From Podarcis pityusensis (taxonomy: Eukaryota): a stretch of 64,000 bases of DNA. Location: the NCBI GenBank assembly GCA_964106645.2, contig OZ067044.1. The stretch is one strand, 5' to 3'. Below the pieces are notes generated by a model that did no database searches, had not been told where the DNA came from, and saw only the letters and a list, made by a program, of their open reading frames with translations. Of this stretch, positions 2,253 to 62,864 are shown one piece after another. Both the position numbers and the translations under genes were made by a program. Within the stretch, counting starts at the first letter, position 1; the number at the start of each line of letters is the position of its first letter.

Positions 2253-2292
2253 TGGTGAACAGTGACACCCAGAGGATCAAGCCCAAACTGCA
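2253..2292 (-). promoter_or_regulatory. Pcdh CSE / CTCF site (CACT variant)
   Basis: Minus strand TGCAGTTTGGGCTTGATCCTCTGGGTGTCACTGTTCACCA: upstream TGCAG module plus CTCF-like core plus the CSE tail, about 190 bp upstream of the ATG. Confidence 0.85.
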
Positions 2293-4629
2293 AAAACTTC
2301 ACTTTTGAAAATTAAATAAACACCATTTCACTGTACTACTGCAGCTATAGCTAGGATAACTTTATTCTTTTCCCTTAGAATTTACCCACTAAGGATAAAT
2401 AAGAGTGACAACTTTTGTTGCTGTAATCAAATTGAAAAGGAGCAGGAAAGACAAGTGTGTTTAGGGTTCCTGCCCTACCCCATTACTGGAAATTCTGGAA
2501 TAAATGTTATGGATCTTTCTCAGCAATGTTTTCGGCTGGCTTTTCTAAGGAAATATTCAATAGATTTTTTCTTGATGGAGAAACAACACTAGTAAACCAC
2601 AGTACATCCTTGTTACCTCTGGCACTTCACTCCTCTCAGCTCCTATTTGTAAATTCACATCTCTAGGCTGTTCATCTTCAAATTGAATTTTTATTTTTAG
2701 GAACGTGTTACATAAGCCCTACTTGGGCATACACTGTCCGTACATGAGCAAACACCCGAGGAGAAATATGGAGTGCTTCTTAGTTCTTTCCTGTCCAGCA
2801 TTTCATCTGTACACAATCTAGATCCCTCCATGAATTTGAGGACCAAGGTGTGAGGTGGGGAGCTTACTCTACTTGTAGGGGCCCCACACATGATTTAGAA
2901 TTTTGCACCATCATGTTTTCTTTGCTTACACTTGAGGAGATTGTTCAAATAAGGCTGTACTGGGTAGGAGATGCACATCATGAATGCCCCAGTTCAAATC
3001 AAACTTCAACCATGAGCTCATTAGTTGTCCTTGGGCAAGACTCCCTTCCTCCTCTCTCTCTGGTTGAGTTCACACAGCAGTTTCCTCCATTTTCCTGATG
3101 TTTCCCTAACTATTAATTTCTGCATCATATTCAAGTTTTCACATGGCATGAAAGCCACTTCATTTCCATGTTATTTAATAGCAGAAAAAATCCATTTGCT
3201 GCTCCCTTAAACCGGAAAATAGCAGGAGTAAAGTGATGAAATTTGGGGCCGTATACATGGAGGAATGAATACATGCACAGCTATGAGTGGAATAGTGGCA
3301 TTGTTATCCAATGATGTTCATTGTTGCATCACACCACACACACTGGTGTGAATGAAATTTAGTGGAACACGATATATTGCTCATATATTGATATGCTGAT
3401 ATATTGGTCAAAAATAAACACATAACACAACTGGTACTGCAGTGTGAAAGGATCACTGGAAAACAGAATAGAAGCACTAGCGTTCTAGTCAGGAAAACTA
3501 ATGCAATACTTGCCACATCTAAATGCATCCTCTCTCCATCTCATCCACAACATGAGGAAAATAATGCTGATCTATCTTTCTGGGTTATTGAAGAGTTACA
3601 AGGGAATGTATATCAACCATTTTCTGCACCAAAGTGCTCTATAAAAACCAAGTATGACTGTAAAGTGCAAAGAAGGCCATGTCCTCCTTAATTTATTGCT
3701 CACATTGTGCCTAGAAGAAAATAAAGCCAAGACGAATGCTATTAAAGCCAATTATTATTACCACACCACTTCACATTACAGAGATAAAAAGAAGCAGGAA
3801 GAGATTGGTGGCACATGCAATGGGGTGGAGCTGTGGAGTGACCCTCCAACACTAGTGTTGTTGCTGGGACTTACCTGGTCAGGGCTGGGCTGACACAACT
3901 GTGTGGTTGGGGCTGGGCAGGTGCACCAGCAGCCATGCTAGATGTTCCCACAGTTAAAAGCACATGACTCCAGCCTCACTGCTGCCCCATCCAGGTAGGC
4001 AACTGTGCGTGGGGGTGGGGGGTGAATTTACCAGCTGCCCACCACCATGCATGTCACTACTGTAGGAGGATAACTTTCAATGGCAGTTTATGCGCTCATG
4101 TATGACAAGCAGGGGTAGATGGTTCTCAGTCATCTTTCTTGGAGATCTTGATGCTCTTCTGCTTCTTGTTCTACAAAATCAGCAGGACTCCTAAAACTGC
4201 TATACTGAATTTGCTGAATGCTTTCCCCCAGAAGACAGAAAATCAAGCATCCAGTCCACTAAGCAATGCCATAAAAGTTTCTTTAAAAATTAGTCTTATG
4301 ACTCAATAGACATTTGTCACCTATGTTACTACAGCATGGAAGCATGACTGGAGATGGTATAGGGTAGAAATACTAGCCACATGCACACTCACCTACATCC
4401 ATACTGTTGGCCACAACTGTTCCAACTGGTCATAATTTCTAATCATACATTGCAAATGCTCTTAGCTGTTCTGACTGTTAAGCAAAGGGGGAAGGAGATT
4501 TTGGGTTCATGATGCACACATATTTGGGTCGGTATATAGGTCAGTACAGGGACCACTGTTTTTCCCTATTGCTCATTGCCTGTGTTTTGTCTTTCTAGTA
4601 TATGCTTTTGGAGATGGGGGATTGATGCA

Positions 4630-5090
4630 TTTTATTTATTTATTTATTTATTTAAAATAATTATATAGTCCCTGTCCCACACTCAAAGAGTATCTAGGTT
4701 GTGTATAATATTAATTTAAGACCATATAAGCACCAGTTCAATGCAATAATACGCATAATAAAGTACAGTATATAATACTGTTGTCAGCAACTTAGTGGAG
4801 TTGAACACCAATGGCCAGCAAATACTTGGTCACATAGATACGTCTTTAAATGTTGATGAAAACACTGCACTGTACATTACTATTGAATTCAAAAGGGCAG
4901 ACTGTTCCACCACAGAGAATGCCATCCTCATGATTCCAGAGTATGTACTGATACAGGTAATGAGACCACCAGGAATGCCTCCACTGAAGATCTTGGTGAA
5001 CAGATGAATTGATATGAGAACAAGCATGATCTTGAACAATCTTGTGCTAAGTTGTTTTAGAAAGGATGAGGTAACATGTTGGAGAATTTA
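4630..5090 (-). mobile_element. Degenerate L2-like LINE 3' fragment (second copy at about 18320-18780)
   Basis: (TTTA)n tail at 4630 and a minus-strand 'AFSVV..LLNS' remnant resembling the L2 RAFSVxxPxLWNSLP motif. Confidence 0.4.
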
Positions 5091-5121
5091 GGAGTGCTTC
5101 ATTAATCTTTTGTGATATATT

Positions 5122-6364: not shown

Positions 6365-6687
6365 TAAGCACTGTCTCCACTCAAACATGCTATGCCATCC
6401 TGTGGTCCGAGATTCTCACCGTAAGTCAGCATGCAAATGTGCATCTGCATAATTCTAACTGAGGCTCCCCCCAACTTGCAATTTTGCCCTTCAACAACTG
6501 CTAGAAGGCCCATTCCATTAGCTTGATCTGCAGCAGTAGCAGCTCAGTACTACCCCATACCTACTTCCCTGGTGACATGGCATGAATTGTCTGGAGTGCC
6601 AGTTTGATAACATCCACTCTTTACAAATAAACTCTCAAACAAGTGACAACACCAAATTCCCTATAAGGAACATGAAATATAACTCAC

Positions 6688-9117
6688 CGTGCTGTCATTT
6701 TCCTTTTCAGAAATTAAATTGCCTCCACTGACCATCAAGGAAATGTCAGGGTTGCCATTGCAAAGGATGTTCTCTGCTATTTGGACAGTGGGCTGCAGGA
6801 ATGTCAACTCATTCCTCCTGGATTCAGAGGACAGACAGACCTGGTAGGAATAAGGCAAAGTTCCGTCCTCATAATTGGGTGGGAATATGGCACCAGCCTT
6901 TGAATGGGGGTCAGGAATAAAGCACTGAAGGAAAGTGGGACTCCTTGACCTTCGAAGCTTCATCAGAATGGTCAGAATCACCGTCACCAGGAACAGGAAG
7001 GACACCAAGGTCAAGGCCAATACCAAATAAAACTGTAGATCAGACTGATACTCTGAGTCATTTGGTTGGGAGTTCATTTCTGGAAGAGCCTCCTGGAAGT
7101 TCTCAGCAAACACCAGGCTCAAAGTTGTGGTGGCTGAGAGAGGAGGATGCCCATTGTCCTTCACCAGGATGACCAGCCTCTGCTTCACTGCATCTCTCTC
7201 AAGTAATGCTCGGACTGTTTGCACCTCTCCTGTGTGGGAGCCAATGCTGAAGAGTGAGGGCTCTGTGGCCTGCAGGAGATGGAAGGAGAGCCAGGCATTG
7301 TGTCCCGAATCGGAGTCCACAGCCACCACCTTCGTCACCAGATAACCCGACTCAGCTGACCGAGGCACCATCTCAAAGAAAGGGGAGCCCTCGGTTGATT
7401 GTGAGGGGTACAGGATCTGCGGAGCGTTATCATTTCGATCCAAAACACATACTGTCACTGTGGCACTGCTATTGAGTGGTGGAGAACCTCCATCTTGGGC
7501 CTTCACTTGAATCTGAAACTCTCTGAATTGCTCATAGTCAAAGGAGCGTTGGGCATAGATGATCCCAGTCTCAGAGTTAATGGAGAAATAGGAGGAGAGA
7601 GGCAGGTCCTTGATGTTGCTGTTAAGGATGGAGTAAGTGATTCTGGCATTGCGATCCAGATCTGGGTCAGAGGCTTTGATGTGGAAAATTGAAGCTCCAG
7701 ATGGGTTGTTCTCTGGAATGTAAGCAGTGTAGGAAGATTTTTCAAAGGCTGGTGGGTTATCATTGATATCTGAGATCTGTATTGATATGGATTTGTGTGT
7801 GGAGAGTGGAGGGGTGCCTTTGTCTGTGGCTGTGATTGTAATATTATACTCTGGAGTCCTTTCTCTGTCAAGGGCACCATCTATGAGGAGCTTGAAATAA
7901 TTATCTGAAGATGAAACTATCTGGAAAGGTACAAGTTCCTTCAGTTGACAGGTGACTTCTCCATTATCCCCAGAATCCCTGTCCTGAACTTTAATGAGAG
8001 CAATCACAGCTCCAGATGTGATATCTTCTGGAACTGGGCTGGACACGGATGTAAGGATCACATCCGGTGCATTGTCATTCTCATCAAGAACCTCAATCTC
8101 CACTTTGCAATGTGACGCCAACCCTCCTCCATCACTTGCCTGAATTATCATCACATAATATTGAATTTCTTCAAAATCAACACTTTCTATGAGTGTAATT
8201 GTTCCGTCTCTGGGATCCAGATGAAACTTCTGTTTGGCTGTTTTTGGGATGTCACTGAAAGTGTAAGTGATCTCAGCATATGACCCTTCATCACTGTCAG
8301 ATGCTTTGACTTGAAGCACAGAGGTTCCTTTGGGTGCACTCTCCTTCAGGCTCACTTTATAGATTGCCTGGGTGAAAACAGGGGCATTGTCATTAATATC
8401 AATAACTGTTACCAATATTTTGGCTGTTCCGGTTTTTGGAGGTTCTCCACCATCCATGGCTGTAAGGACCATGTTATGCATCTGTTCTTTTTCCCTGTCC
8501 AGTTGTTTCTGTAATATTAATTCTGCATATTTGGCACCATCATCGCCAGCTTGAATTTCTAGTTTGAAATATGGAGTTGAGCTCAACTGATAATTCTGGA
8601 GGGAGTTCATTCCGATATCATCATCTTCAGCATTTCCAAGAGTAAATCGAGTTCCCGGCAGAGTAGATTCACTAAATTTAAGCTCAATATTTTCATTCTG
8701 GAAATGTGGGGCATTATCATTGATGTCCTGGATAAAAATATTTACGTGGAAAATATTCAAAGGATTGTGTGCCACAACTTCTAATTTGAGGACACAAGTA
8801 GATGATTTACCACAAATCTCTTCCCGGTCTATCCTCTCATTCACATACAGGTTGCCACTTTGTTCATTCAAATCAAAGAATTGTTTTTCTGAAGAAATAC
8901 CAAGCTTGCGCTTTGACAGCTCTCTGACATCCAACCCCAGATCTTTAACAAGGTTCCCCACAAAGGAGCCCTGCTCTGCTTCCTCTGGAACCGAATACTG
9001 AACCTTCTCAGACACTACCTGGCAGCAGAACACAGACCAGAATATGAACAAAAACAGTACTTGCCTCTTGGTGATCTCCCTTGTTCTCTCTGCTTGCTTT
9101 ACTTCCATCACATCCAT
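6688..9117 (-). CDS. PCDHGB: Protocadherin gamma-B-type variable exon (810 codons to the splice donor; unspliced ORF reads to the stop at 6661)
   Basis: 818-aa ORF with signal peptide (RQVLFLF), six cadherin repeats (DxNDN, LDRE, AxDGG), TM and the gammaB-type GTLPYSY motif. Donor ACG|GTGAGT at 6688/6687, phase 0. Confidence 0.95.
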
Positions 9118-9348: not shown

Positions 9349-9390
9349 TTGTCCAACAGTGACACTCTGAGTCCACATGGGGAACTGTAT
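9349..9390 (-). promoter_or_regulatory. Pcdh CSE / CTCF site (CACT variant)
   Basis: Minus strand TACAGTTCCCCATGTGGACTCAGAGTGTCACTGTTGGACAA, about 230 bp upstream of the ATG. Confidence 0.82.
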
Positions 9391-12300: not shown

Positions 12301-12829
12301 ACAACTTACCAGTAGCAAGGCAGGTGAGGGCTCACATTTATATACTTATTTATTGATAGAGGTTTTTTAAACCACCCACTATTTGGAAGTGTACTAAAAA
12401 TATGAAATAAAAGCCAAATACAACATACTAAGTTAAAACAATTAAGAATGCATTAAATCAGGAACTCACCTGCTGCACATGAAAATAGGATGAGCCTAGC
12501 CTTCTCCCTATCTCCTTTACATGATAGTTTCAATATGTAGTGAACTATGTTTTTTTATAGATGTGCACAAGATTCTGTGAGCCTCCACCAGCAGTCCAAA
12601 GTAAGAGACAAAGACAGATCATCTGATGCATTAAGATTAAGATTTGTTGAAAGAAGATACTTCACAGAAGGATCACATATAAAGTAATAACTAAAAGAAG
12701 GGGGAGCTGAAAGTAATAGAAAGAAGACTGACATAGTTGTGAATATAATGAAAAAGCAGAGGCAGACGAGAAATATATTCTGATATTAGCAAAACAAAAA
12801 ATCATGTTAATCTAAAATTATTTGCTCAC

Positions 12830-15232
12830 CTGGACTACGATTAAGCCTTCATTGTTCAAGTTTAAATCTTCACCAGGTAGGATTGGATCCTTTGCCTCAC
12901 AAGCCTCTTTATTGTTCAGAGTATTGGAATAATTTGCCTTTCTAGAGTCTGTAGTGAGAGAAACCTCCTGGCAGTAGGAGTGCAGAAATGCTCGGACTCC
13001 ATCGATCCCCACAAACTGTGAGATAGGAGCGCCACTGAAATTCACACTCCCTGACTCAAGCAGCTGAGAATTTCTCCACCTGTGCAACTTGATGGCCAGT
13101 AACACAAGGAGGAAGATGAGGAACAAGCAGGAGACAAAAGCCACTGCAAGGACCAGGTAGAAGGTGAGGTCAGACGAAGGTGCTACAGGAGCTGAGATGC
13201 TGCTCAGGTCTGAGAGGATTGCAGGGATGGTGTCAGCCAGCACCACAGTCAGAGTGGCTGAAGCAGAGAGAGGTGGCTGCCCATTGTCCTTCACTAAAAC
13301 CACCAGGCTTTGCTTGAGAGCATCTTTCTCCAGAAAGAAGCGGGCCGTCCTGATCTCTCCCGTGTGGAGCCCCAGAGTGAAGAGCCCTGGCTCGGTGGCC
13401 TTGATCAGCTGGTAGGAGAGCCAGGCATTCTGGCCAGAGTCCGCATCCACGGCCACCACCTTAGTGACCAGGTAGCCTGGCTCTGAGGAGCGAGGGGCCA
13501 GCTCTATCCCTGTGGAGCCGTCGGTGGGAGGGGAGGGGTACAGGATTTGGGGAGCATTGTCATTCTGGTCCAGGATGAAGAGAGTCACTGAGACATTGGA
13601 GCTGAGTGGTGGAGAACCTCCATCCTGAGCCTTTACACGGAACCGAATGTCTCGAAAGTCTTCATAATCAAAGGAGGTCAGAGCATATATAACCCCCGTC
13701 TCAGAGTTAATGGAGAGGTAGGAGGAGAGGCGGGAGTCACTTCTTTGGTCATCAGTGATGGAATATGTTATTCTGGCATTTTCTTCCCAGTCAAGATCAT
13801 TTGCTCTTAAGGAAGAGACCATCGCTCCTCTTTGGTTATTCTCAACAAAATAGAAAGTATAGTCTGTTTTTTCAAAGAGGGGTGGGTTGTCATTTGTGTC
13901 TAAAACATGAAGTGTGATAACTGTGACTGTAGAAAGAGGGGGGACTCCATGGTCAGTAACAGTGACAGTAATATTGAAGACTGACACCTGTTCCCTATCA
14001 AGGGCACCATCAGTCACCAAACTGTAAAAGTTATCCATGGACTTCTTTAGCTGGAAAGGGAGGTTTTTAGGGATTGAACATGTGATTTCCCCATTGATTC
14101 CTGAATCTCGGTCTTGGACATTTAATATGGCAATTACCGTTTGGCATGGTGAACTTTCAAGTATGGTGTTGGTGGCAAAGGTAACTGATAGTTGAGGTGC
14201 ATTGTCATTCAGATCTGTAACTGATATCACAACTTTTGATCTGTCACTCAGGCCTCCTCCATCTTTGGCTTGTATCTCAAATGCATATAAAGATGATTCC
14301 TCATAATCAAGATTCCCAATAAGGATGATTTCCCCTGTTGTGGAATTTAACAGAAACATTTGGGAGTTGCGCTTTGTAATTTCTTGGAAAGAGTATTTAA
14401 TGTCTCCATTGATTCCTTCATCCATATCAGTTGCTCTCACTGTCAAAAGTGTGGACCACTTGGGAATATTCTCATTGATACTCACTTCATAGAGAGGTTG
14501 GCTGAAAACTGGTGCATTGTCATTTGCATCAATAACAACAATGTGGATTTGTAATGTGCCAGACCTGATAGGATCACCTCCATCAGTAGCTGTGAGAAGC
14601 AAATCGTAAGCTGATTGTTCCTCTCGGTCCAGTGACTTTTCCAACACAAGTTCAACAAATCTGGCACCATTTTCTTTTGTTTGCACATGCAAAGCAAAAT
14701 TGCTACTGCCTGTGAGTTGGTAGCTCTGCACGGAATTTATCCCCCAATCTGGATCTTGAGCTTTGGGTAGAGGGATCTGGAATCCAGGCATAGATGCCTC
14801 ATTGATTTCCAGCTCCTGTTCCCATAGAGGGAAGTGGGGAGCATTATCATTTATATCCGTAATTTCCACTTCAATTCCATAAAGCTTCAATTTGCTTTCA
14901 ACAAGAACCTGAAACTTTAACATACATTTCTCTGCCTCTCTGCAGATTTCCTCTCTATCTATTCTCTCAGATATCTGCAAATGGCCATTGTTGGCATTCA
15001 AAGAAAAGTACTGAATCATACCTACAGGGGAAACAATTCGGAGTCCATGGTCTGGGAGTTGCTTGCCATCCATTCCCAGGTCCTTTGCAATATTCCCCAC
15101 GGAAGAGCCTTTGTGCATCTCTTCTGGAATGGAGTAGTGGATCTGCCCAGAAACTGCCTTCCAAGAAAACATCATGAAAAGGCACTGGAAGATTCCCTTT
15201 CTGCAATTCCACAGCCTCTGAATTCCTTTCAT
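12830..15232 (-). CDS. PCDHGA: Protocadherin gamma-A-type variable exon (801 codons; unspliced stop at 12818)
   Basis: The true ATG is at 15232 (MKGIQRLW); the track start at 15277 is a TTG. Six EC repeats, gammaA motifs [14 protein letters not shown] and [15 protein letters not shown]. Donor CAG|GTGAGC at 12830. Confidence 0.95.
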
Positions 15233-15426: not shown

Positions 15427-15466
15427 TGGTCAACAGTGACACCCAGAGGATCAAGTGCAAACTGCA
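15427..15466 (-). promoter_or_regulatory. Pcdh CSE / CTCF site (CACT variant)
   Basis: Minus strand TGCAGTTTGCACTTGATCCTCTGGGTGTCACTGTTGACCA. Confidence 0.85.
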
Positions 15467-20405: not shown

Positions 20406-22834
20406 CGTGCTGTCATTTTCCTTTTCAGAAATTAAATTGCCTCCACTGACCATCAAAGAAATGTCAGAGTTGCCATTGCAAAGGATGTTCTCTCCTATTT
20501 GGACAGTGGGCTGCAGGAATGTCAACTCATTCCTCCTGGATTCAGAGGACAGACAGACCTGGTAGGAATAAGGCAAAGTTCCGTCCTCATAATTGGGTGG
20601 GAATATGGCACCAGCCTTTGAATGCGGGTCAGGAATAAAGCACTGAAGGAAAGTAGGGTTCCTTGACCTTCGAAGCTTCATCAGAATGGTCAATATCACG
20701 GTCACCAGGAACAGGAAGGACACCAAGGTCAAGGCCAATACCAAATAAAACTGTAGATCAGACTGATACTCTGAGTCATTTGGTTGGGAGTTCATTTCTG
20801 GAAGAGCCTCCTGGAAGTTCTCAGCAAACACCAGGCTCAAAGTTGTGGTGGCTGAGAGAGGAGGGTGCCCATTGTCCTTCACCAGGATGACCAGCCTCTG
20901 CTTCACTGCATCTCTCTCAAGTAATGCTCGGACTGTTTGCACCTCTCCTGTGTGGGAGCCAATGCTGAAGAGTAGGGCTCTGTGGCCTGCAGGAGATGGA
21001 AGGAGAGCCAGGCATTGTGTCCCGAATCGGAGTCCACGGCCACCACCTTCGTCACCAGATAACCCGACTCAGCTGACCGAGGCACCATCTCAAAGAAAGG
21101 GGAGCCCTCTGCTGATTGTGAGGGGTACAGGATCTGCGGAGCGTTATCATTTCGATCCAAAACACATACTGTCACTGTGGCACTGCTATTGAGTGGTGGA
21201 GAACCTCCATCTTGGGCCTTCACTTGAATCTGAAACTCCCTGAATTGCTCATAGTCAAAGGAGCGTTGGGCATAGATGATTCCAGTCTCAGAGTTAATGG
21301 AGACATAGGAGGAGAGAGGCAGATTCTTGATGTTGCTGTTAAGGATGGAGTAAGTGATTCGAGCATTGCGATCCAGATCTGGGTCAGAAGCCTTGACGTG
21401 GTAAATTGAAGCTCCAGATGGGTTGTTTTCTGGAACGTAGGCAGTGTAGGAAGATTTTTCAAAGGCTGGTGGGTTATCATTGATATCTGAGATCTGTATT
21501 GATATGGTTTTGTGTGTGGAGAGTGGAGGTGTGCCTTTGTCTGTGGCTGTGATTGTAATATTATAATCTGCACTCCTTTCCCTGTCAAGGGCACCATCTA
21601 TGAGGAGCTTGAAGTAATTATCCAAAGATGAGACTATCAGGAAAGGTACAAACTCCTTCAGGTGACAGGTGACTTCTCCATTATTCCCAGAATCCCTGTC
21701 CTGAACTTTAATGAGAGCAATCACAGCTCCAGATGTAGCATCTTCAGGAACTGGGCTGGACACGGATGTAAGGATCACATCTGGAGCATTGTCATTCTCA
21801 TCAAGAACCTCAATCTCCACATTACAATGTGCCACCAATCCTCCGCCATCACTTGCCTGAATTATCATCACATATTTTTGTCTGTCCTCAAAATCAACAC
21901 TTTCTATGAGTGTGATTGTTCCGTCTCTGGGATCTAGATGAAACTTCTGTTTGGCTGTTTTTGGGATGTCACTGAAAGTATAAGTGATCTCAGCATTTGA
22001 CCCTTCATCACTGTCAGATGCTTTGACTTGAAGCACAGAGGTTCCTTTGGGTGCACTCTCCTTCAGGCTCACTTTATAGATTGACTGGGTGAAAACAGGA
22101 ACATTGTCATTATTATCAATAACTGCAACCAATATTTTGGCTGTTCCGGTTTTTGGAGGTTCTCCCCCATCCATGGCTGTAAGGACCATGTTATGCACCT
22201 GTTCCTTTTCCCTGTCCAGTTGTTTCTGCAAAATTAATTCAGCATATTTACCACCATCATTGCTGTTTTTAATTTCTAGTTTGAAATATGGAGTTGAGCT
22301 CAACTGATAATTCTGGAGGGAGTTTATTCCAATATCATCATCTTCAGCATTTCCAAGAGCAAATCGAGTTCCCGGCAGAGTAGACTCACTCAATTTAAGC
22401 TCAATATTTTCATTCTGGAAATGTGGAGCATTATCATTAATGTCCTGGATAAAAATATTTACGTGGAAAATATTCAAAGGATTGTGTGCCACAACTTCTA
22501 ATTTGAGGACACAAGTGGATGATTCCCCACAGATCTCTTCCCGGTCTATCCTCTCATTCACATACAGGTTGCCATTTTGTTCATTCAAATCAAAGAATTG
22601 CTTTTCTGAAGAAATACCAAGCTTGCGCTTTGACAGCTCTCTGACATCCAACCCCAGATCTTTAGCAAGGTTCCCCACAAAGGAGCCCTGCTCTGCTTCC
22701 TCTGGAACTGAATATTGAACCTGCTCAGACACTACCTGGCAGCAGAACACAGACCAGAATATGAACAGAAACAGTACTTGCCTCTTGGTGATCTCCCTTG
22801 TTCTCTCTGCCTGCTTTACTTCAATCACATCCAT
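20406..22834 (-). pseudogene. PCDHGB: Protocadherin gamma-B-type variable exon with a 1-nt deletion frameshift in EC6 (pseudogene or consensus error)
   Basis: 2429 nt from ATG to donor, against 2430 in all three paralogs. Reads agtagggctc at 20971-20980 where paralogs read agtgagggctc. The ORF stops at 20903 (643 aa) and the remainder continues in another frame (20379-20942). Confidence 0.8.
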
Positions 22835-24585
22835 TGTTGTTTCTGATTTCCTCCTTCTTTCACTTCAATTTTCAAGACTCCCAGTACACTGATGTCAGAT
22901 AATAGAAATATTGTTCTTTTGAGCTGCTCTTTGGGAAACCGAGAGCTTTCCTTTCTTGAGCAGCTTTTAATATAAAAGCTTTTCCTTTCTGCTCGGCTGA
23001 AGTGTTAAGAGAGAGAGACTACTCCAAGAGTCTCAGAAATGCTGAGCCATGGCTGCTCCCACATTGTCCAACAGTGACACTCTGAGTCCATACGATGAAC
23101 TGCTTTTACTATTTCTAGAATTCTACATGGAATTTTGTTTCTTAAGTAGGGAATTGTTTGTAATATAAGTACACCTTTAAATGCAATCTGAAACATATTT
23201 CTTCTCCATCACTTGTGTGCATCCTTTTCGCTTCCCAGTCCCTCACTATTCAGCATCATTGCTTTATTTTCTTTCTTTAAAAAGTGGAAAAAAAAACAAG
23301 AAAACCCATAGGTATAGTAGAGAGGGGATGCCTGTTGGTGAGGAGGGCTTTGTTTCCAGAGGCTTCTAAAGAAATTGTGGTCTTCTAGATCATTTAAATA
23401 GTGTAATTCCTTGTCAGGGTACACATGGTTTGTCAATGTCTCCTTTATTGGATCAGGAGGCAGAGGGATCTACATTTGACATGCTCCCTGGCAGGAAGTT
23501 CCAGTTCTGTGCATGTTCAGGAACATCATTTCTGGTTTGAGGTTAGATAGGACTCTCCTACCTCTGCCCACTGACAATTACCACCAGCACCCCACACCTT
23601 TTTAAGGGTGATTTTATTTTTACTTGATAAAGGGAAGAAATGGCAGGGAGGTTTAGCTAATGGTACTGGTGAAACCCATTTTATGCTTGAAATTAATTCA
23701 AAGAAAACTGGGTCCTCGCTGAATTAAAGTGATTAAAAAAGATGGGAGAGCTTATATTTAAAATCTTCTCATAGGACCTGGACTAAAGCTAGCTGCACTC
23801 TTTATAAAAGAGACAACATGTAATACATTATTACGTTATTTGCTATCTGTCTTTCACCCAGTTTAAACATAGCATTAATATCTCTATACTTTTGCATAAT
23901 TCCATTTAAAAAGTTTCTGTAAAGGAATAAAATACTGAAAGACCAAACTAACCAATGTACATTTGATTAATGTGATCAAAATATTTTACCACATGTATTT
24001 ACAATAATGTAATGCAACTATTTCAAGCACCATTTCCCCCCAAGTGTTCCCAATATTAAATCATTTCCAGTTTCTCTTTAACCGTCATACAATTTTGTGT
24101 GAATCAAAGCATTCCCACCCCACCTGCTCCAATGCAGTTTTGATTCTGCAATGAACGTAGTTCCAGGACATTATCACAAATGGTCACCTCTACAATATCT
24201 TCAAAGTTCAGCCCCTACCAGCTACAGCTGTGTCAATAACTTGGCACAAACCATATAATGTTGTTTGGGGACATCTCTCTATCCCATGACAGTTTTCTTG
24301 TGAGTTTCTTAATAGGGTCAGAAACACATCCCACAAATAAGTGTTTTCCGGCTTGGGATGTTTGGACATTGTCAAGCACTCTTCTTCTGACACCACAGAC
24401 ACATATATTTTCTGGGATTCAAAATTCTACCCTCACCTTATATTGGAAATCGCATTGGGGTAGAAACCCCCCCCCCCCAAAAAAAAAAAAATTAGTGTGT
24501 TGCTGTTGTTTTCTGACACAGGGTAAAGGTTCCAAGTTATAAGGAGCATAATGCAATCAATCTTACATATGATTGCTTGCATTTT
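22835..24585. repeat. About 5.5 kb gammaB tandem duplication: upstream spacer copy of 28363-30050
   Basis: High identity to 28363-30050. At about 24585 the sequence switches to a paralog of 5461-6660 / 19155-20378. Confidence 0.88.
23064..23104 (-). promoter_or_regulatory. Pcdh CSE / CTCF site (CACT variant)
   Basis: Plus strand ttgtccaacagtgacactctgagtccatacgatgaactgc. Confidence 0.82.
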
Positions 24586-28563: not shown

Positions 28564-28604
28564 TTGTCCAACAGTGACACTCTGAGTCCACATGGGGAAC
28601 TGTT
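28564..28604 (-). promoter_or_regulatory. Pcdh CSE / CTCF site (CACT variant)
   Basis: Plus strand ttgtccaacagtgacactctgagtccacatggggaactg. Confidence 0.82.
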
Positions 28605-31086: not shown

Positions 31087-31104
31087 CTAAAATTGTTTGC
31101 TCAC

Positions 31105-42284: not shown

Positions 42285-42324
42285 TGGTGAACAGTGACAC
42301 CCAGAGGATCAAGCCCAAACTGCA
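42285..42324 (-). promoter_or_regulatory. Pcdh CSE / CTCF site (CACT variant)
   Basis: Identical to the element at 2253. Confidence 0.85.
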
Positions 42325-44222: not shown

Positions 44223-45287
44223 TATAAGAGAATACAGGACCTGGCCAGGGCAGGAGCCGGGGGGGGGGGCAGGGGATAGTTTCAGGTTCATGATACGGTC
44301 ATGTTTGGTTTAGGGTATTTGTAAATTCAGGGACCATTTCCAGTATATACATATCTTGGAAGCGGGGGGATATGTGCATATTATTTAATTTTTTATTTAA
44401 AATAATTCTATAGTCCCCCCATCACTACCCCCCCCAAAAGAGTGGTATACAACATCTCTAGAAATCATGCCAAGAGAAACTCCCTTTTGATGTCACTCTT
44501 CTACACAGGTTGTACATGAGCATTTTTCATTCTACAAACAGCATGCAGTCACAGGACCTAAGAAATGCTTGTACAACTGATAGCTTCCATAAGAGCTCCA
44601 CCACTTAATATGTTGTGCTATTCTCATCAGACCCAAATCCCAAGCTGTGTCTGTGACAGGAACACAATATCCAAATGCTATGTAAGATTATTTGTATATA
44701 TGAGAACCAAATAAAGTTATTCTAAAACGTTTAGTGATTAATTAATCCTTTACTCTCATTAAATAATCCAACCCATGAAAAGCTCCACAAACATTTCATA
44801 AAATTCAGTTGAAAAACTTTACCAATTACTAGGAAATTTACCAACTTATTTAAAGAATATTCTATGAAAGACTTTTTGGTATTTCTTCTTGTAAATTTCT
44901 TAAAGGACAGAATGTGAAAATAGCTACATATTCAATTGCATTTGTACTGCAAAGATAAGAAGAAGAAGAAAACATCATTCTGTCCACTCAGCCATGCTGC
45001 ACCACACTGTAATCTTGGCACGACACCAAGTTACCATGCAGATGTGTACCTGGACAATTCTGACAAAGCCTCCGCCATCCTGCTGTGCTGCCCCTCAATA
45101 GCTGCTGGAAGGTCCAATTAGCTGGCTCTACAGCAGTAGCAGCTCAATACTACTCCCTATCTACTTCCCTGATGACATGGTCTGAATTCTCTGGGATGCC
45201 AGTTTGATAACATCCACTGTTTACAATTAAACTCTCAAACAAGTGATAACACCAAATTCCCTATAAGGAACATGCAATATAACTCAC

Positions 45288-47717
45288 CGTGCTGTCATTT
45301 TCCTTCTCAGAAATTAAATTGCCTCCACTGACCATCAAAGAAATGTCAGAGTTGCCATTGCAAAGGATGTTCTCTGCTATTTGGACAGTGGGCTGCAGGA
45401 ATGTCAGCTCATTCCTCCTGGATTCAGAGGACAGACAGACCTGGTAGGAATAAGGCAAAGTTCCGTCCTCATAATTGGGTGGGAATATGGCACCAGCCTT
45501 TGAATGGGGGTCAGGAATAAAGCACTGAAGGAAAGTGGGGTTCCTTGACCTTCGAAGCTTCATCAGAATGGTCAGTATCACCGTCACCAGGAACAAGAAG
45601 GACACCAAGGTCAAGGCTAATACCAAATAAAACTGTAGATCAGACTGATACTCTGAGTCATTTGGTTGGGAGTTCATTTCTGGAAGAGCCTCCTGGAAGT
45701 TCTCAGCAAACACCAGGCTCAAAGTTGTGGTGGCTGAGAGAGGAGGATGCCCATTGTCCTTCACCAGAATGACCAGCCTCTGCTTCACTGCATCTCTCTC
45801 AAGTAATGCTCGGACTGTTTGCACCTCTCCTGTGTGGGAGCCAATGCTGAAGAGTGAGGGCTCTGTGGCCTGCAGGAGATGGAAGGAGAGCCAGGCATTG
45901 TGTCCCGAATCAGAGTCCACGGCCACCACCTTCGTCACCAGATAACCCGACTCAGCTGACCGAGGCACCATCTCAAAGAAAGGGGAGCCCTCTGTTGATT
46001 GTGAGGGGTACAGGATCTGCGGAGCGTTATCATTTTGATCCAAAACACATACTGTCACTGTGGCACTGCTATTGAGTGGTGGAGAACCTCCATCTTGGAC
46101 CTTCACTTGAATCTGAAACTCCCTGAATAGCTCATAGTCAAAGGAGCGTTGGGCATAGATGATCCCAGTCTCAGAGTTAATGGAGACATAGGAGGAAAGA
46201 GGCAGGTCCTTGATGTTGCTGTGAAGGATGGAGTAAGTGATTCTGGCATTGCGATCCAGATCTGGGTCAGAGGCCTTGATGTGGAAAATTGAAGCTCCAG
46301 ATGGGTTGTTCTCTGGAACATAGGCAGTGTAGGAAGATTTGTCAAAGGCTGGTGGGTTATCATTGATATCTGAGATCTGTATTGATATGGATTTGTGTGT
46401 GGAGAGTGGAGGTGTGCCTTTGTCTGTGGCTATGATTGTAATATTATACTCTGGAGTCCTTTCTCTGTCAAGCGCACCATCTATGAGGAGCTTGAAGTAA
46501 TTACTCGAAGATGAGACTATCAGGAAAGGTACAAGTTCCTTCAGGTGACAGATGACTTCTCCGTTATCCCCAGAATCCCTGTCCTGAACTTTAATGAGAG
46601 CAATCACAGCTCCAGATGTGACATCTTCTGGAACTGGGCTGGACACGGAGGTAAGGATCACATCTGGAGCATTGTCATTCTCATCAAGAACCTCAATCTC
46701 CACATTACAATGTGCCACCAATCCTCCTCCATCACTTGCCTGAATTATCATCACATATTTTTGCCTGTCCTCAAAATCAACACTTTCTATGAGTGTGATT
46801 GTTCCATCTCTGGGATCTAGATGAAACTTCTGTTTGGCTGTTTTTGGGATGTCACTGAAAGTGTAAGTGATCTCAGCATTTGACCCTTCATCACTGTCAG
46901 ATGCTTTGACTTGAAGCACAGAGGTTCCTTTGGGTGCACTCTCCTTCAGGCTCACTTTATAGATTGTCTGGGTGAAAACAGGGGCATTGTCATTAGCATC
47001 AAGAACTGTTACCAATATTTTGGCTGTTCCGGTTTTTGGAGGTTCTCCACCATCCATGGCTGTAAGGACCATGTGGTGCATCTCTTCTTTTTCCCTGTCC
47101 AGTTGTTTCTGCAGTATTAATTCTGCATATTTTCCGCCGTCATTGCTGTTTTGAATTTCTAGTTTGAAATATGGAGTTGAGCTCAACTGATAATTCTGGA
47201 GGGAGTTCATTCCGATATCATCATCTTCAGCATTTCCAAGAGCAAATCGAGTTCCCGGCAGAGTAGATTCACTAAATTTAAGCTCAATATTTTCATTCCG
47301 GAAATGTGGAGCATTGTCATTAGTATCCTGAATAAAAATATTTACGTGGAAAATATTCAAAGGATTTTGTGCTACAACTTCTAGTTTTATGACACAAGTA
47401 GATGATTCCCCACAAATCTCTTCCCGGTCTATCCTCTCATTCACATACAGGTTGCCATTTTGTTCATTCAGATCAAAGAATTGCTTTTCTGAAGAAATAC
47501 CAAGCTTGCGCTTTGACAGCTCTCTGACATCCAACCCCAGATCTTTAGCAAGATTCCCCACAAAGGAGCCCTGCTCTGCTTCCTCTGGAACTGAATACTG
47601 AACCTGCTCAGACACCACCTGGCAGAAGAACACAGACCAGAATATGAATAGAAACAGTACTTGCCTCCTGGTGATCTTCCTTGTTCTCTCTGCCTGCTTT
47701 ACTTCCATCACATCCAT
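45288..47717 (-). CDS. PCDHGB: Protocadherin gamma-B-type variable exon (810 codons; unspliced stop at 45261)
   Basis: Intact 818-aa ORF. Donor ACG|GTGAGT at 45288. Confidence 0.95.
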
Positions 47718-47942: not shown

Positions 47943-47983
47943 TTGTCCAACAGTGACACTCTGAGTCCACATGGGGAACTGTA
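47943..47983 (-). promoter_or_regulatory. Pcdh CSE / CTCF site (CACT variant)
   Basis: Plus strand ttgtccaacagtgacactctgagtccacatggggaactgta. Confidence 0.82.
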
Positions 47984-51351: not shown

Positions 51352-51789
51352 TCCCCACCCCACCCTGTCTCTGCTAGTGGTGTTTCTCTTTGGCAGGATC
51401 AGGAAGATATAGGCAGTTTGGGGGACTGCACTGACAGATGTGGAGGGTGCATGCAGCCCACTGGTTATCCACCTCTGTGCTACAGCCATGGAGAGAGAGC
51501 CCTGCTACCAAAAGTTCTGGTAAACCAAACTGTTCTAGAGACCTTGTTAATCATTATTAAACAATGGCACTAGCAGCCTTCAGGAATGCATCCTTAGCTT
51601 TAGCTAAACATGCAAAGGAGGGGCCTCGGGAAGAGATGTGCAATCTACACCATGCTGTGGTTCTTCTTAGTCTCCCATTCCTGGATGGTGATTGCCTGAG
51701 CCAGGAAACCTTTTGTACTCAGGAAAGTTTCCTATGCATTTTAGAATACTGGGAGATCGAATAGGAAGTACTGAAACTTATGTGCTCAC

Positions 51790-54216
51790 CTGATGGATTG
51801 CTGCCTCCTCCGTACCTGTGTTAGAATCACCTATGAGTAACACAGGGCCTGGCTTATCCGGAGCCTGTTGTGGTGTCAGAGTATTGGTACAGCTTCCGAT
51901 TGGAAAAAGAATCTGACTTTTCCGAGAGCCTGAAGTCAGTGAAACCTCATGGCAATAAGACTGAAGAAATGCCCGGACTCCATCAATCCCCACAAACTGG
52001 GAGATGGGAGCACCATCAAAATGCACACTTCCATTGTCACACAGCTGAGAATTTTTCCATCTGCGAAGTTTCAGTGCCAGTAACACAAGGAGGAAGGCAA
52101 GGAACAAGCAGGAGACAAAAGCCACTGCAGTCACCAAGTAGAAGGTGAGATCTGACTGTGGGTCTTCAGATACTGGGACGCTGCTCAGATCAGTCAGCAT
52201 GTCAGGGATGCTGTCTGCCAAGACCACAGTGACAGTGACTGATGCCGACATTGGAGGCTGCCCATTGTCCTTCACTAAAACCACCAGGCTTTGCTTGAGA
52301 GCATCTTTCTCCAGAAAGAAGCGGGCCGTCCTGATCTCTCCCGTGTGGAGCCCCAGAGTGAAGAGCCCTGGCTCGGTGGCCTTGGTCAGCTGGTAGGAGA
52401 GCCAGGCATTCTGGCCAGAGTCCGCATCCACGGCCACCACCTTAGTGACCAGGTAGCCTGGCTCAGAGGAGCGAGGGGCCAGCTCTATCCCCGTGGAGCC
52501 ATCAGTGGGAGGGGAGGGGTACAGGATTTGGGGAGCATTGTCATTCTGGTCCAGGATGAAGAGAGTCACTGAGACGTTGGAGCTGAGTGGTGGAGAACCT
52601 CCATCCTGAGCCTTAACCAGGAACTTAATCTCCCTGATCTCTTCATAGTCAAAAGAACTCAGAGCATAGATGACCCCTGTCTCTGAGTTAATGGAGAGGT
52701 ATGAGGAGAGAGGGGAGCCAGTCACTTGACTTTCTATGATGGAATAAGTTATTCTGGAGTTCTCTTCCCAGTCTGGATCATTTGCATTTAGAGAAAAGAT
52801 GGATGCTCCTCTCTGATTATTTTCCATGAAAAATGACTTGTAATCTGATCTTGCAAAGTGAGGTGGGTTATCATTTGTGTCTAAAATGTGCAGAGCTATG
52901 ATGGTGGCTGTAGAAAGAGAAGGCATTCCATGATCAGTTACTGTGATGGTGATGTTGTAGTTTGCCACTTGTTCTCTGTCAAGGGGGCCATCTGTCACCA
53001 AACTATAAAAGTTGTCTATGGATTGTTTTAGCTGAAACGGGAGGTTTCTGGGAATTGTGCATGTGACCTCACTATTGATTCCAGAATCGTGATCTTCTAC
53101 ATTTATAATAGCAATAACTGTTCCGGTTGATGAGTTCTCCTGAATGGAGTTGGTCAGAAAGGTCACAGTTAATTCTGGCGCATTGTCATTCAGATCTGTG
53201 ACCATGATCACAACCTTTGACCTGTCACTTAGACCACCCCCATCCATGGCTTGCACCTCAAATTCATAGAAGGATGATGTCTCAAAGTCCAAGTTTCCCA
53301 TGAGGGTTATTATGCCAGTTGTTGAATTTAAAAGAAACATTTGTGAATCCTTTTTTGTGGTTTTTTTGAAGGAGTATTTCACCTCTCCGTTGATTCCTTC
53401 ATCCAGATCAGTGGCTTTGACTGCACAGAGTATGGACCCTTTGGGAATGTTCTCCTCAATGCTGATTTCATAGACTGGTTGGCTAAAAATTGGTGCGTTG
53501 TCATTTACATCTAAAACAATGACTTGAATTTGGGCAGTGCCAGTCCTGACAGGATCACCCCCATCCATAGCCATAATAATTAGATCATAAACTGGCTGTT
53601 CCTCTCTGTCCAAAGATTTTTCCAGCACCAGCTCAGCATGTTTGGGACCATTTTCTCCTGTTTGAACATCCAGAGAAAAATGCACGCTGCCTGTGAGTTG
53701 GTAATTCTGAACAGAATTTATCCCCAGATCTGGATCAGTAGCATCAGGCAGAGGAAACCGAGACCCTTTCATAGATATTTCATTAATTTTCACCTCCAGT
53801 TGTCCTGGAGGAAAGTGGGGAGCATTATCGTTTATATCAGTAACTTCCACTTCAACTCCATAAAGTTTTCTTTTACTCTCAACAATAACCTGAAAATTTA
53901 ATTTGCACTTCTCTGCCCATGCACAAATTTCTTCTCTGTCAATTCTCTCAGTGGTTTGTAAATGACCACTGTTGTAGTTCAAAGTAAAATACTGAATCAT
54001 ACCTGTTCTGGTAAGAATCCGGAGCTCGCGGTTTGAAAGATTATTTCCATCCATTCCTAGATCCTTTGCAATATTTCCCACAAAAGAGCCTTTCTGCATC
54101 TCCTCTGGAATGGAATAATGAAGTTGTGCAGAAACTGTCTTCAAAATGAGCATCAATATGAGGCATTGCAACAAGATTGTCTCTTTACAGCTCCATTGCT
54201 TCTGGTTTCCTCCCAT
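51790..54216 (-). CDS. PCDHGA: Protocadherin gamma-A-type variable exon (809 codons; unspliced stop at 51778)
   Basis: Intact 812-aa ORF with [26 protein letters not shown]. Donor CAG|GTGAGC at 51790. Confidence 0.95.
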
Positions 54217-54408: not shown

Positions 54409-54448
54409 TGGTGAACAGCGACACCCAGAGGCTCAACTGAAAACTATA
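54409..54448 (-). promoter_or_regulatory. Pcdh CSE / CTCF site (canonical CGCT)
   Basis: Minus strand ...GAGCCTCTGGGTGTCGCTGTTCACCA. Confidence 0.88.
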
Positions 54449-55863: not shown

Positions 55864-55864
55864 A

Positions 55865-58826: not shown

Positions 58827-58859
<33 letters not shown>

Positions 58860-59770: not shown

Positions 59771-60208
59771 TAAAAGACAAAAACAAGATAAATATAGCAT
59801 TTACGTTGACCAGCACCATTGTGGCAAAGAACTGAAGCCTGAATGTATTTGATGAAAAGGGGAGCATCAATTTATAATCCCACATAAAATTGTTGACAAA
59901 AAGGGAGCATTGCATCTACAGGCATTCAGAAGGTCAACAATGGAACGTTTTCAAAAGGCAAATTTCATTGTGCACATGGTAGAGACGTACTACAGAATAT
60001 GCAAGATGACTTCACCTGGCATCAGCACTACAAGACATACCACCAAGACATAGAGTAAGAAAGACAACCTATCTGTTCTAGAGATCATTATACATTGTTA
60101 AACAATGGCAGTAGCAGCATTCAGAAAATCTTTATACTCAGGAAAGTTTCCTATGCATTTTAGAATACTGGAAGATCAAATGGGAAGTCTTGACATTTAT
60201 GTGCTCAC

Positions 60209-62632
60209 CTGATGGGTTGCTGCCTCCTCCGTAACTGTGTTAGAATCACCTATGAGTAACACAGGGCCGGGCTTATCCGGAGCCTGTTGTGGTGTCAGAG
60301 TATTGGTACAGCTTCCGATTGGAAAAAGAATCTGACTTTTCCGAGAGCCTGAAGTCAGTGAAACCTCATGGCAATAAGACTGAAGAAATGCCCGGACTCC
60401 GTCAATCCCCACAAACTGGGAGATGGGAGCACCATCAAAATGCACACTTCCATTGTCACATAGCTGAGAATTTTTCCACCTGCGAAGTTTGAGTGCCAGT
60501 AACACGAGGAGGAAGGCGAGGAACAAGCAGGAGACAAAAGCCACTGCAGTCACCAAGTAGAAGGTGAGATCTGACTGTGGGTCTTCAGATACTGGGACGC
60601 TGCTCAGATCAGTCAGCATGTCAGGGATGCTGTCAGCCAAGACCACAGTGACAGTGACTGATGCCGACATTGGAGGCTGCCCATTGTCCTTCACTAAAAC
60701 CACCAGGCTTTGCTTGAGGGCATCTTTCTCCAGAAAGAAGCGGGCCGTCCTGATCTCTCCCGTGTGGAGCCCCAGAGTGAAGAGCCCTGGCTCGGTGGCC
60801 TTGATCAGCTGGTAGGAGAGCCAGGCATTCTGGCCAGAGTCCGCATCCACGGCCACCACCTTAGTGACCAGGTAGCCTGGCTCAGAGGAGCGAGGGGCCA
60901 GTTCTATCCCCGTGGAGCCATCAGTGGGAGGAGAGGGGTACAGGATTTGGGGAGCATTGTCATTCTGGTCCAGGATGAAGAGAGTCACTGAGACGTTGGA
61001 GCTGAGTGGTGGAGAACCTCCGTCCTGGGCCTTGACCAGGAACCTCAGCTCCCTGATCTCTTCATAGTCAAAAGAACTCAGAGCATAGATGACCCCTGTC
61101 TCAGAGTTAATGGAGAGGTAGGAGGTAATAAGGAATTTGTCCATGTTCCCTTCAGTTATGGAATAACTTATTCTGGCATTTTCCTCCCAGTCTGGATCGT
61201 TTGCTTTTAAGGAAAATACTTGAGCTCCTCTTGGATTGTTCTCTGTAAAATAAGCCAAGTAAGATGGTTCTGCAAAAACAGGAGGGCTGTCATTTGTGTC
61301 TTGGATTTGAAGTAGGATAAAAGTTGACACAGAAAGTGGTGGAATTCCATGGTCAGTAGCTGTGATAGTGATGTTGTAGTCTGCTTTGTTCTCTCTGTCA
61401 AGGTTGCTTTGTGTCACCAAACTATAAAAGTTATCAAAAGACTGTTTTAGTTGGAAAGGGAGCTTACTGGGAATTGAACATGTGACCTCCCCATTGACCC
61501 CTGAATCTTCATCTTGTACATTTAGAAGGGCAATAACTGTTCCTATTGGTGAATTCTCAGAAATGGTATTGATGAAAAAGGTTATTGATAGTTCAGGTGC
61601 ATTGTCATTAACATCCGTAACAATTATCACAACTTTTGACCAGTCACTCAGCCCTCCTCCATCCTCAGCCTTCACCTCAAAGTCATAGGAGGATGATTCC
61701 TCATAATCAAGGTTTCCCATTAAGGTAATTGTACCAGTCGTTGAGTTTAAAATAAACATTTTGGAATCCTTCTTTGTGATTTTTTTGAATGAATATTTTA
61801 TCTCTCCGTTTTGTCCTTCATCCAGATCAGTAGCACTAACTGTAGCAATGCTGGACCCGTTCAGAATGTTCTCCTTGATGCTCATTTCATAGATTGGTTT
61901 GCTGAAAACAGGTGCATTGTCATTTGCATCTAAAACAATGACTTGGATGTTAGCAGTGCTGGACCTGACTGGATCGCCTCCATCAGTAGCTGTGAGGATC
62001 AGATTGAAAACAGATTGCTCTTCCCGGTCCAGATTTTTCCCCAACACCAGCTCAGCAGATTTGGCACCATTTTCTTCAACTTGCACCTCCAGAGAAAAAT
62101 GGCTACTGCCTGTGAGTTGGTAGGTCTGTATAGAATTTATCCCTAGGTCTGGATCCTGAGCTTCAGGCAGAGGGAACCGGGATCCAGCAGTAGATGCCTC
62201 ACTGATTTTCAGTTCCTGTTTCCCCGATGAGAACTGGGGAGCATTATCGTTTATATCAATAATTTCCACTTGAACCCCATAGATCTCTATTTTGCTCTCA
62301 ACTATAACATCAAAACTTAAAACACACCTTTCTGCCCTTCCACAGACTTCCTCTCTGTCTATTCTCTGAGAGGTTTGTAAATGGCCACTGTTGTAATTCA
62401 AAGCAAAATACTGACTCGTACCTGACCTGGTAACAATCCGTAGTCCGTGGTCTGAAAGATGATTTCCATCCACGCCTAGATCCTTTGCAATATTCCCCAC
62501 AAAAGAGCCTTTCTGCATCTCCTCAGGAATGGAATAATGAATCTTCCCAGAAACTATCTTCCAAGCAAGCACAATTATGAGGCATCGTAAGACCCTTTCT
62601 TTGCAGATCCACAGCTTTTGATTTTCTTCCAT
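60209..62632 (-). CDS. PCDHGA: Protocadherin gamma-A-type variable exon (808 codons; unspliced stop at 60197)
   Basis: Intact 811-aa ORF. Donor CAG|GTGAGC at 60209. Confidence 0.95.
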
Positions 62633-62824
62633 TATCTTGCAACACTATCTAGGACTCAGGAGCTTCTGGGTTTTAAATTAGTGGTTTTTAAAAAAATAAA
62701 AAATAGAAGTCTCTCTTAACAGTGCCTACAATATCTGTGCAAGTTTGATGCATCAGATATTTTGTGCTTGTGTTTAAGAATACTGTGGCTGGGTTAGCTG
62801 AATATCTGTCTTCCTGTGCCAGAT

Positions 62825-62864
62825 TAGTAAACAGCGACACTCAGAGGCTCAACTGAAAACTGGA
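62825..62864 (-). promoter_or_regulatory. Pcdh CSE / CTCF site (canonical CGCT)
   Basis: Minus strand TCCAGTTTTCAGTTGAGCCTCTGAGTGTCGCTGTTTACTA. Confidence 0.86.

Follow-up and report, generated by a model that had tools for sequence, protein, structure and literature searches.

Methylation of the CTCF site in the promoter is central, in the mammalian model, to the choice of a protocadherin isoform by a neuron, whereas according to structural and quantitative work the CpG of the CGCT box barely affects CTCF. The protocadherin cluster of Podarcis pityusensis brings this question to the fore, as seven of ten CSE cores in a stretch of 64,000 nucleotides (contig OZ067044.1, assembly GCA_964106645.2; hereafter the window) read CACT and the three others CGCT. 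According to the original prediction, the CpG had been lost in exactly the recently amplified promoters, possibly creating methylation-gated and methylation-insensitive classes, with neutral deamination before amplification as the null explanation. Does the missing CpG define a second class of promoters, or is it a tolerated variant copied by duplication?

The CACT-form core GTGTCACTGTT occurs seven times and the CGCT-form core GTGTCGCTGTT three times in the window, all on the minus strand, and the CACT form precedes both gammaA-like and gammaB-like exons, in agreement with the counts first announced. All ten protocadherin exons have a co-oriented element, as had also been claimed; the distance from the element to the first ATG downstream is 201-248 bp (10/10). 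The elements and exons are distributed as follows:

2260..2275, minus strand: CSE and predicted CTCF core, CACT, of a gammaA-like cassette promoter (motif start 2268)
2264 and 2263, minus strand: core bases C12 and A13, respectively, of this first element
1..2067, minus strand: gammaA-like variable exon of the amplified lineage A, running off the window
9357..9372, minus strand: CSE, CACT, of a gammaB-like cassette promoter (motif start 9365)
6661..9117, minus strand: gammaB-like variable exon of the amplified lineage B
15434..15449, minus strand: CSE, CACT, lineage A (motif start 15442)
12818..15232, minus strand: gammaA-like variable exon, lineage A
23072..23087, minus strand: CSE, CACT, lineage B (motif start 23080)
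20903..22834, minus strand: gammaB-like variable exon, lineage B, with a frameshift close to residue 620 (643 aa), the remainder of the exon lying in another frame
28572..28587, minus strand: CSE, CACT, lineage B (motif start 28580)
25906..28362, minus strand: gammaB-like variable exon, lineage B
33747..33762, minus strand: CSE, CGCT, of a single-copy gammaA-like promoter (motif start 33755)
31087..33507, minus strand: single-copy gammaA-like variable exon (nearest EC1-3 identity 0.74)
42292..42307, minus strand: CSE, CACT, lineage A (motif start 42300)
39665..42097, minus strand: gammaA-like variable exon, lineage A
47951..47966, minus strand: CSE, CACT, lineage B (motif start 47959)
45261..47717, minus strand: gammaB-like variable exon, lineage B
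54416..54431, minus strand: CSE, CGCT, of a single-copy gammaA-like promoter (motif start 54424)
51778..54216, minus strand: single-copy gammaA-like variable exon (nearest EC1-3 identity 0.73)
62832..62847, minus strand: CSE, CGCT, of a single-copy gammaA-like promoter (motif start 62840)
60197..62632, minus strand: single-copy gammaA-like variable exon (nearest EC1-3 identity 0.73)

The assignment of these elements to gammaA and gammaB promoters, as predicted CSE/CTCF sites in forward orientation, is supported by the exons themselves. Compared with EC1-5 structures, exon 39665-42097 scores higher with gammaA9 (617 bits) than with gammaB2 (467), and exon 45261-47717 higher with gammaB2 (598 bits) than with gammaA9 (567). 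The layout of the cluster also places the elements upstream of clustered gammaA/gammaB variable exons, and the best CSE site lies 286-414 bp before the EC1 anchor in all 71 alpha, beta and gamma genes scored.

The base that distinguishes the two forms occupies core position 13 of the CTCF motif, which is known to accept A or G, and is the sole difference between the lineage A core, as at 42292-42307 (CACT), and the core at 54416-54431 (CGCT). In the reports on the CTCF core motif (PMC11514455, PMC5694663, PMC10325916), CACT and CGCT are the two standard states of positions 12-15, and both are abundant at the canonical motifs of this genome. CTCF accommodates CpG, methyl-CpG and CpA at positions 12-13, and methylation inhibits binding at position 2 and slightly enhances it at position 12 (PMC11514455); a CACT-containing site serves as the reference site in PMC5694663, which describes no strongly methylation-sensitive position besides 2-3 and notes divergences for low-affinity sites. 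Genome-wide, the canonical motif is matched more often in the CA form (1406) than in the CG form (1145), the reversed controls giving 31 and 27 matches, respectively; the TG form is also enriched (585 vs 120 in the control). A looser genome-wide CSE pattern yielded 2169 matches, below its control (3531), and is hence uninformative. At positions 3, 6 and 11, the gamma CSEs of this cluster do not match the canonical core, and they may therefore be weaker sites. Methylation effects are less well resolved for weaker CTCF sites.

The seven CACT genes belong to two families, one of three gammaA-like and one of four gammaB-like copies that are nearly identical, with a protein identity of 90-96% within each family and ~47-50% between them. 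Since seven promoters thus represent two lineages, the appropriate comparison within the window is 2/2 vs 0/3 (Fisher p=0.10) and not 7/7 vs 0/3 by gene (p=0.008). The idea that lineages A and B inherited CACT from a common source was rejected, the flanks following the gammaA/gammaB types and the clades being separate.

When the cores are tabulated throughout the cluster, the CpG is missing from 28/44 gamma, 6/11 alpha and 16/16 beta CSEs; it is kept in 20 of the 70 alternate promoters and gone in 50, CA being the majority state in this genome. The alpha genes concerned are old (nearest EC1-3 identity 0.66-0.81), with the CA form in 5/11 promoters. Among the gamma elements, C2, G10, C12, T15 and G16 are invariant (44/44), 16 elements have G13 and 28 have A13, and no TG occurs at positions 12-13 in any of the 44; the CGCT box is found in 3/10 window and 16/44 gamma elements, the remainder being CACT or CAGT. 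Twelve of the 16 beta CSEs exhibit T12, and C12 is thus not always required. A CpG at core positions 2-3 is found in none of the 44 gamma CSEs, where the base after position 2 is T in 43 and A in one, and is present in 2/11 alpha and 1/16 beta elements. Among the 40 of 927 differences listed against contigs of four related organisms over 42150-54550, none affects CSE positions 12-13.

With respect to amplification, the CSE CpG is missing in 22/22 genes of four amplified gamma lineages vs 6/22 other gamma genes (Fisher p=0.014 by lineage, 0.026 when stratified by gammaA/gammaB). The predicted restriction to exactly the amplified promoters accordingly holds inside the window and fails cluster-wide, where those six non-amplified genes also lack the CpG; the link runs one way only. 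This association was identified post hoc, and neutral tree simulations give p values of 0.005-0.074 for CpG loss in all four lineages. Two of these lineages, located outside the window, are an out-of-sample success for the original prediction, albeit a weak one because 5/11 non-amplified gammaB genes are also CA.

The 44 gamma promoters call for a minimum of 8 CG/CA changes on the EC1-3 protein tree, and of 6 on a promoter tree in which the position-13 base was masked; the one-direction binomial p is 0.004-0.016 if the changes are independent CpG losses. The 6-12 losses are spread over ~10.3 third-position substitutions per site of CG-state branches, for which the ordinary G-to-A rate predicts 8.3 losses and the local CpG rate 23, a count of 12 or fewer being improbable under the latter (Poisson p=0.008). 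Loss of the CSE CpG has proceeded at roughly the pace of ordinary G-to-A change, and more slowly than that of the other CpGs of the locus. Plain CpG hypermutation was rejected as a null, the losses being too few against the local CpG rate, in simulations as well. The deamination-before-amplification explanation consequently survives in its timing, loss in the founders before amplification being supported, and not in its rate.

Taken together, two copied founders and the recurrence of the change across the cluster make a tolerated variant likely, rather than a second, methylation-proof class. Probably, CACT is a near-neutral G-to-A change at the flexible position 13, with a single origin in each of two founder promoters and a subsequent spread by tandem duplication to seven promoters. 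In this scheme, each of the ten elements would act as a forward-facing CTCF site of a gamma promoter, and purifying selection for CTCF binding would retain C12, so that the CpG could decay only towards CA; the T12 of most beta CSEs and the enriched TG form of the canonical motif count against this. Both forms would bind CTCF and anchor enhancer loops; the T opposite position 13, which resembles the methyl group contacted by Ser364 of CTCF, may introduce a difference of affinity that would be quantitative and would not amount to a second gating class.

Relaxed selection in redundant copies offers another, though unlikely, explanation: multi-copy promoters would no longer purge G-to-A changes, G13 being weakly favoured, or shielded by CTCF from germline methylation, in single-copy promoters, and unequal crossover or gene conversion would carry A through the array. 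It finds some support in the retention of CG in 16/22 non-amplified gamma promoters despite a background CG/(CG+CA) of 0.11, in simulations at the local CpG rate, where an outcome of 6 or fewer CA singles is rare (p=0.002), in the CA state of all four amplified lineages, and in the visible homogenisation of 3' exon halves between neighbours. However, none of the four amplified promoter clades contains a CG copy, an observation that loss before amplification explains equally well or better; CA or CAGT already occurs among the non-amplified relatives of one amplified lineage (lineage Y), a trio of genes at 90-92% EC1-3 identity keeps CG in 2/3, and amplified genes are not poorer in other CpGs.

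That CGCT promoters are methylation-gated and CACT promoters ungated, with a steadier CTCF binding and a bias of choice accompanying amplification, appears improbable. The literature disagrees on its premise: according to the mammalian reviews (PMC7811963, PMC6881428), CTCF cannot bind CSEs whose CGCT box is methylated, whereas in-vitro quantitative work finds little effect and no block at positions 12-13. In its favour, the thymine on the opposite strand reproduces the methyl geometry of the 5mC that stimulates binding through Ser364 (PMC10325916), CpG loss is associated with amplification, and C11 occurs only alongside G13 (7/16 CG vs 0/28 CA gamma CSEs), a hint of coupled evolution. Against it, CSE methylation is reported to be mosaic in active and inactive alpha promoters alike (PMC3333863), and CA occurs sporadically among the old alpha and the single-copy gamma promoters, the beta CSEs all lacking the CpG. 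The changed base is moreover a degenerate purine of the CTCF motif, in-vitro sensitivity to methylation lies mainly at position 2, which is not part of a CpG in any gamma CSE, and CACT and CGCT promoters are equally poor in other CpGs (3.0 vs 3.3, p=0.73). The two-class model of the original prediction is not established by these data. Lastly, a false duplication of the cassette by the assembly, with the seven as over-counted copies, is highly improbable, for although tandem arrays are hard to assemble and one copy is frameshifted, the copies differ by 4-10% in protein and by promoter indels, and collapsed gammaB-exon contigs reach ~3-5x the flanking depth, a rough sign, in the runs of 4/4 related organisms.

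The sequence change alone is ordinary, with a known degenerate base and a precedent in fish and frog; the wider pattern of 70 promoters devoid of CpG islands, with 20 CSE CpGs among them, is more interesting than the CACT/CGCT split. All 70 alternate promoters contain 0-7 CpG per ~520 bp and none carries a CpG island, while the delta, alpha-c1, alpha-c2 and last CSE-bearing gamma promoters contain 30-66. A general excess of CpG decay in amplified genes was discarded, other CpGs being no scarcer there. A neuronal barcode drawn largely without gating by DNA methylation in this lineage is conceivable, if doubtful; this reading relies on the island-free alternate promoters, on the 50 CSEs without CpG, and on CA as a permanent mimic of the CTCF-stimulating methyl mark of the opposite strand, in all four amplified lineages. 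If it were true, stochastic choice would depend on loop extrusion and on chromatin marks of another kind, and this array of mixed CG and CA promoters would constitute a natural experiment on mammalian CSE methylation. Near-isogenic promoter pairs in a CpG-poor array thus allow a direct test of the disagreement on methylation.

With mammals (PMC7811963, PMC3333863, PMC6881428), the cluster shares a single forward element ~200-250 bp before the ATG, the register of the CTCF core with C12, the lack of a CSE in most C-type genes, and the interspersion of gammaA and gammaB exons. It differs in that the CGCT box, described as highly conserved in mammals, is limited to 20/70 alternate promoters, and in the lack of the prominent CpG islands that flank mammalian alternate promoters (PMC10463633). 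The alpha CSEs of zebrafish and Xenopus also lack CGCT, which is less conserved in Xenopus gamma (PMC4978886); the CSE persisting without CGCT in non-mammalian vertebrates, CpG loss has a precedent. Unlike in these species, both states coexist here within alpha and within gamma of one genome, all beta CSEs lack the CpG, and the amplified gamma lineages are all CpG-free. The cluster of the green anole (PMC2764143) resembles that of P. pityusensis by its delta-alpha-beta-gamma order, its 15-16 or so beta genes, its gammaB expansion and its interspersed gammaA/gammaB genes duplicated as blocks, two more recent cassette amplifications distinguishing the latter. The green anole paper does not mention CpG, and a search mostly confined to literature outside subscription found no account of the core states of CSEs, or of the CpG content, in a reptile cluster.

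Expression was surveyed in one related organism from 6-12% of the reads of three raw RNA runs (tissue unstated), with an exon depth mostly <3.5, too low for a comparison of the two classes. At this depth, the unique 5' half of the CGCT exon is covered by no reads in run X24 and by a few in X23. Run X24 exhibits sense reads over both CACT-type exons, again mostly at <3.5, the cassette depth summing 4-6 copies.

The window, which lies at G000:C7:86,118,001-86,182,000, contains ten open reading frames (ORFs) of 643-818 aa on the minus strand, all of them clustered protocadherin variable exons. The gammaA and gammaB types were assigned by comparison with solved structures for two of the ten exons, the other eight being placed by tree. 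The element upstream of each exon (CSE), a predicted CTCF site, has the orientation of the genes in all ten cases, with the first ATG located 201-248 bp downstream of the motif; seven elements read GTGTCACTGTT, the CACT form devoid of CpG, and three read GTGTCGCTGTT, the CGCT form. Other features of the window and its surroundings are as follows.

1-2067: variable exon extending past the window edge.
20903-22834: gammaB copy whose reading frame shifts near residue 620, either a pseudogene or an assembly error.
G000:C7:86,209,258 and 86,273,935: further broken exons.
31087-32300, 51778-52900 and 60197-61300: 3' exon halves nearly identical between gammaA genes that are distant elsewhere, which points to gene conversion.
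~43978-44225, 49664-49780, 34000-34240 and 35748-35900: short intergenic repeats of very high copy number (read pile-ups), likely non-autonomous transposons.

The cluster was located by protein search (150 of 157 candidates scored) and examined over 600 kb around the window, except for 78 kb inside this span for which the protein search listed no exon. Of its 79 cadherin ORFs, eight were not counted: delta, alpha-c1, alpha-c2, the second fragment of a broken gamma gene and four C-like genes at the 3' end that lack a clear CSE. The genes counted are 11 alpha, 16 beta and 44 gamma, class names beyond the two structure-searched exons being given by position and sequence likeness. This delta-alpha-beta-gamma layout, with 16 beta genes here, is similar to that of the anole cluster, as outlined in the available portion of PMC2764143, and suggests a reptile. 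A second amplified cassette occurs 85-160 kb beyond the low end of the window and comprises two more lineages of six genes each, with CACT and CAGT cores; it consists of a two-gene gammaB unit (G000:C7:85,958,000-86,034,000), two pairs of which are 99-100% identical over EC1-3.

The original prediction held that the CpG was lost in exactly the seven amplified promoters of the window. Its counts stand, but the seven promoters form two clades, A (4 copies cluster-wide) and B (6 copies), fully supported both in the EC1-3 tree and in a promoter tree with position 13 masked, so that the window offers a comparison of 2/2 versus 0/3 (p=0.10) rather than 7/7 versus 0/3. Gamma cores (n=44) comprise 16 CGCT, 21 CACT and 7 CAGT; alpha cores (n=11) 5 CG, two of them lower-scoring calls, 5 CA and 1 AG; and beta cores (n=16; G000:C7:86,221,041-86,312,444) 8 TG, 4 TA, 4 CA and no CG. 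The CSE CpG is thus kept in 20 of the 70 alternate promoters, a set that omits the gamma gene at 85,930,292, where a CpG island is present. A CpG-less CSE occurs in 22/22 genes of the four amplified gamma lineages, but also in 6/22 other gamma, 6/11 alpha and 16/16 beta genes, and the loss is therefore not limited to the amplified cassette. The nearest EC1-3 identity of the alpha genes is 0.66-0.81. In the beta CSEs, position 12 is T in 12/16, and the upstream half of the motif matches better.

The association of CpG loss with amplification (p=0.014 by lineage, 0.026 stratified by class and 0.005-0.074 over five neutral tree simulations) was tested post hoc, prompted by half of the lineages, and its four lineages derive from two cassette amplifications; a weak link remains. 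A trio with 90-92% identity keeps CG in two of its three members.

In the CTCF register, aligned here to sites in the available text of PMC5694663, position 12 corresponds to the first C of CGCT and position 13 to the base that changes. Residues C2, G10, C12, T15 and G16 are invariant in all 44 gamma CSEs, position 13 being G or A. Across the genome, a canonical CTCF pattern occurs 1145 times with CG, 1406 with CA and 585 with TG (reversed controls 27, 31 and 120), and the abundance of the CA form makes it a normal state of the motif; strong sites tolerate TG as well, as do the beta CSEs of this cluster. The decay products of CpG are balanced in this region (TCACT 874, TTGCT 877); the CpG of gamma CSEs has decayed only to CA (p 0.004-0.016 for 6-8 events), which suggests that selection for CTCF binding would retain C12 and tolerate A13, and implies that the CACT elements are predicted to be still working sites. 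For the 44 gamma promoters, the protein tree demands at least 8 CG/CA changes and the promoter tree at least 6; the number is 12 when only losses are counted. The CG-state branches sum to ~10.3 third-position substitutions per site, a length over which the ordinary G-to-A rate predicts 8.3 losses and the local CpG rate (2.8-fold, from recent copies, probably an underestimate) predicts 23. With 6-12 losses seen, decay is slower at the CSE CpG than at the other CpGs of this locus. This would be accounted for if bound CTCF shields the site from methylation in the germline, or if G is weakly favoured by selection.

Descent and the flexibility known for the CTCF motif account for most of the window observation: in the most probable explanation, a tolerated, near-neutral G-to-A change at position 13 arose once per founder promoter and was copied by tandem duplication. 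Relaxed selection in redundant copies, which would yield the same amplification pattern without any new function, is rather unlikely. Two functional promoter classes, methylation-gated and methylation-insensitive, appear somewhat less likely still. All four amplified lineages, two of them outside the window, are CpG-less, and methylation of the CGCT box precludes CTCF binding at mammalian CSEs according to the consulted parts of PMC7811963 and PMC6881428, which cite primary papers; however, 5/11 non-amplified gammaB genes also carry CA. The sources disagree on this gating. In the excerpts available, PMC11514455 and PMC6222495 report that methylation inhibits CTCF at position 2 and slightly enhances it at position 12, positions 12-13 accommodating CpG, methyl-CpG and CpA, and PMC5694663, echoed by PMC10287918, describes a reference site containing CACT, no strongly sensitive position beyond 2-3 and some divergence at low-affinity sites. 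The accessible sections of PMC10325916 attribute to Ser364 the stimulation of binding by opposite-strand methylation, a thymine there having the same geometry, and those of PMC3333863 cite mosaic CSE methylation in active and inactive promoters alike. The position 2 CpG is absent from all gamma CSEs (0/44). Few RNA reads fall on CG- and CA-type exons. An assembly artefact is highly improbable; contigs of four related organisms have 3-5-fold depth over the gammaB exon, a rough indication of a genuine amplification that these organisms share.

More interesting than the CACT/CGCT split of the window is the erosion of CpGs throughout the cluster. The CpG observed/expected ratio is 0.23 in the gamma region and 0.21 in the window, and all 70 alternate promoters contain 0-7 CpG per ~520 bp, versus 30-66 in delta, alpha-c1, alpha-c2 and the last CSE-bearing gamma promoter. 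Neither the alternate promoters nor the 5' halves of the exons have a CpG island anywhere in the cluster; the only islands are those of delta, alpha-c1, alpha-c2 and the gene at 85,930,292, and one within the last C-like gene's exon. CG and CA genes (15 versus 28) do not differ in their other promoter CpGs (3.0 versus 3.3, p=0.73), nor do the two groups in those of the first exon kb (10.4 versus 9.3, p=0.52). Mammalian variable promoters, in contrast, have prominent flanking CpG islands according to the text available from PMC10463633, and the part of PMC4978886 consulted had already reported loss of the CGCT box in alpha protocadherins of zebrafish and Xenopus. A literature search found no paper on these CSE/CpG states in reptiles. 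In cold-blooded vertebrates, promoters can be unmethylated and yet poor in CpG, so low CpG content alone shows neither methylation nor its absence.

In several separate clades, C11 occurs only alongside G13 (7/16 CG and 0/28 CA gamma CSEs), which may reflect coupling of the two positions, gene conversion or an influence of sequence context on methylation. A second CpG (9-10) occurs in just two gamma CSEs, one of them within a CpG island; the other 42 carry T9 next to the invariant G10, possibly a mirror-image decay towards TG.
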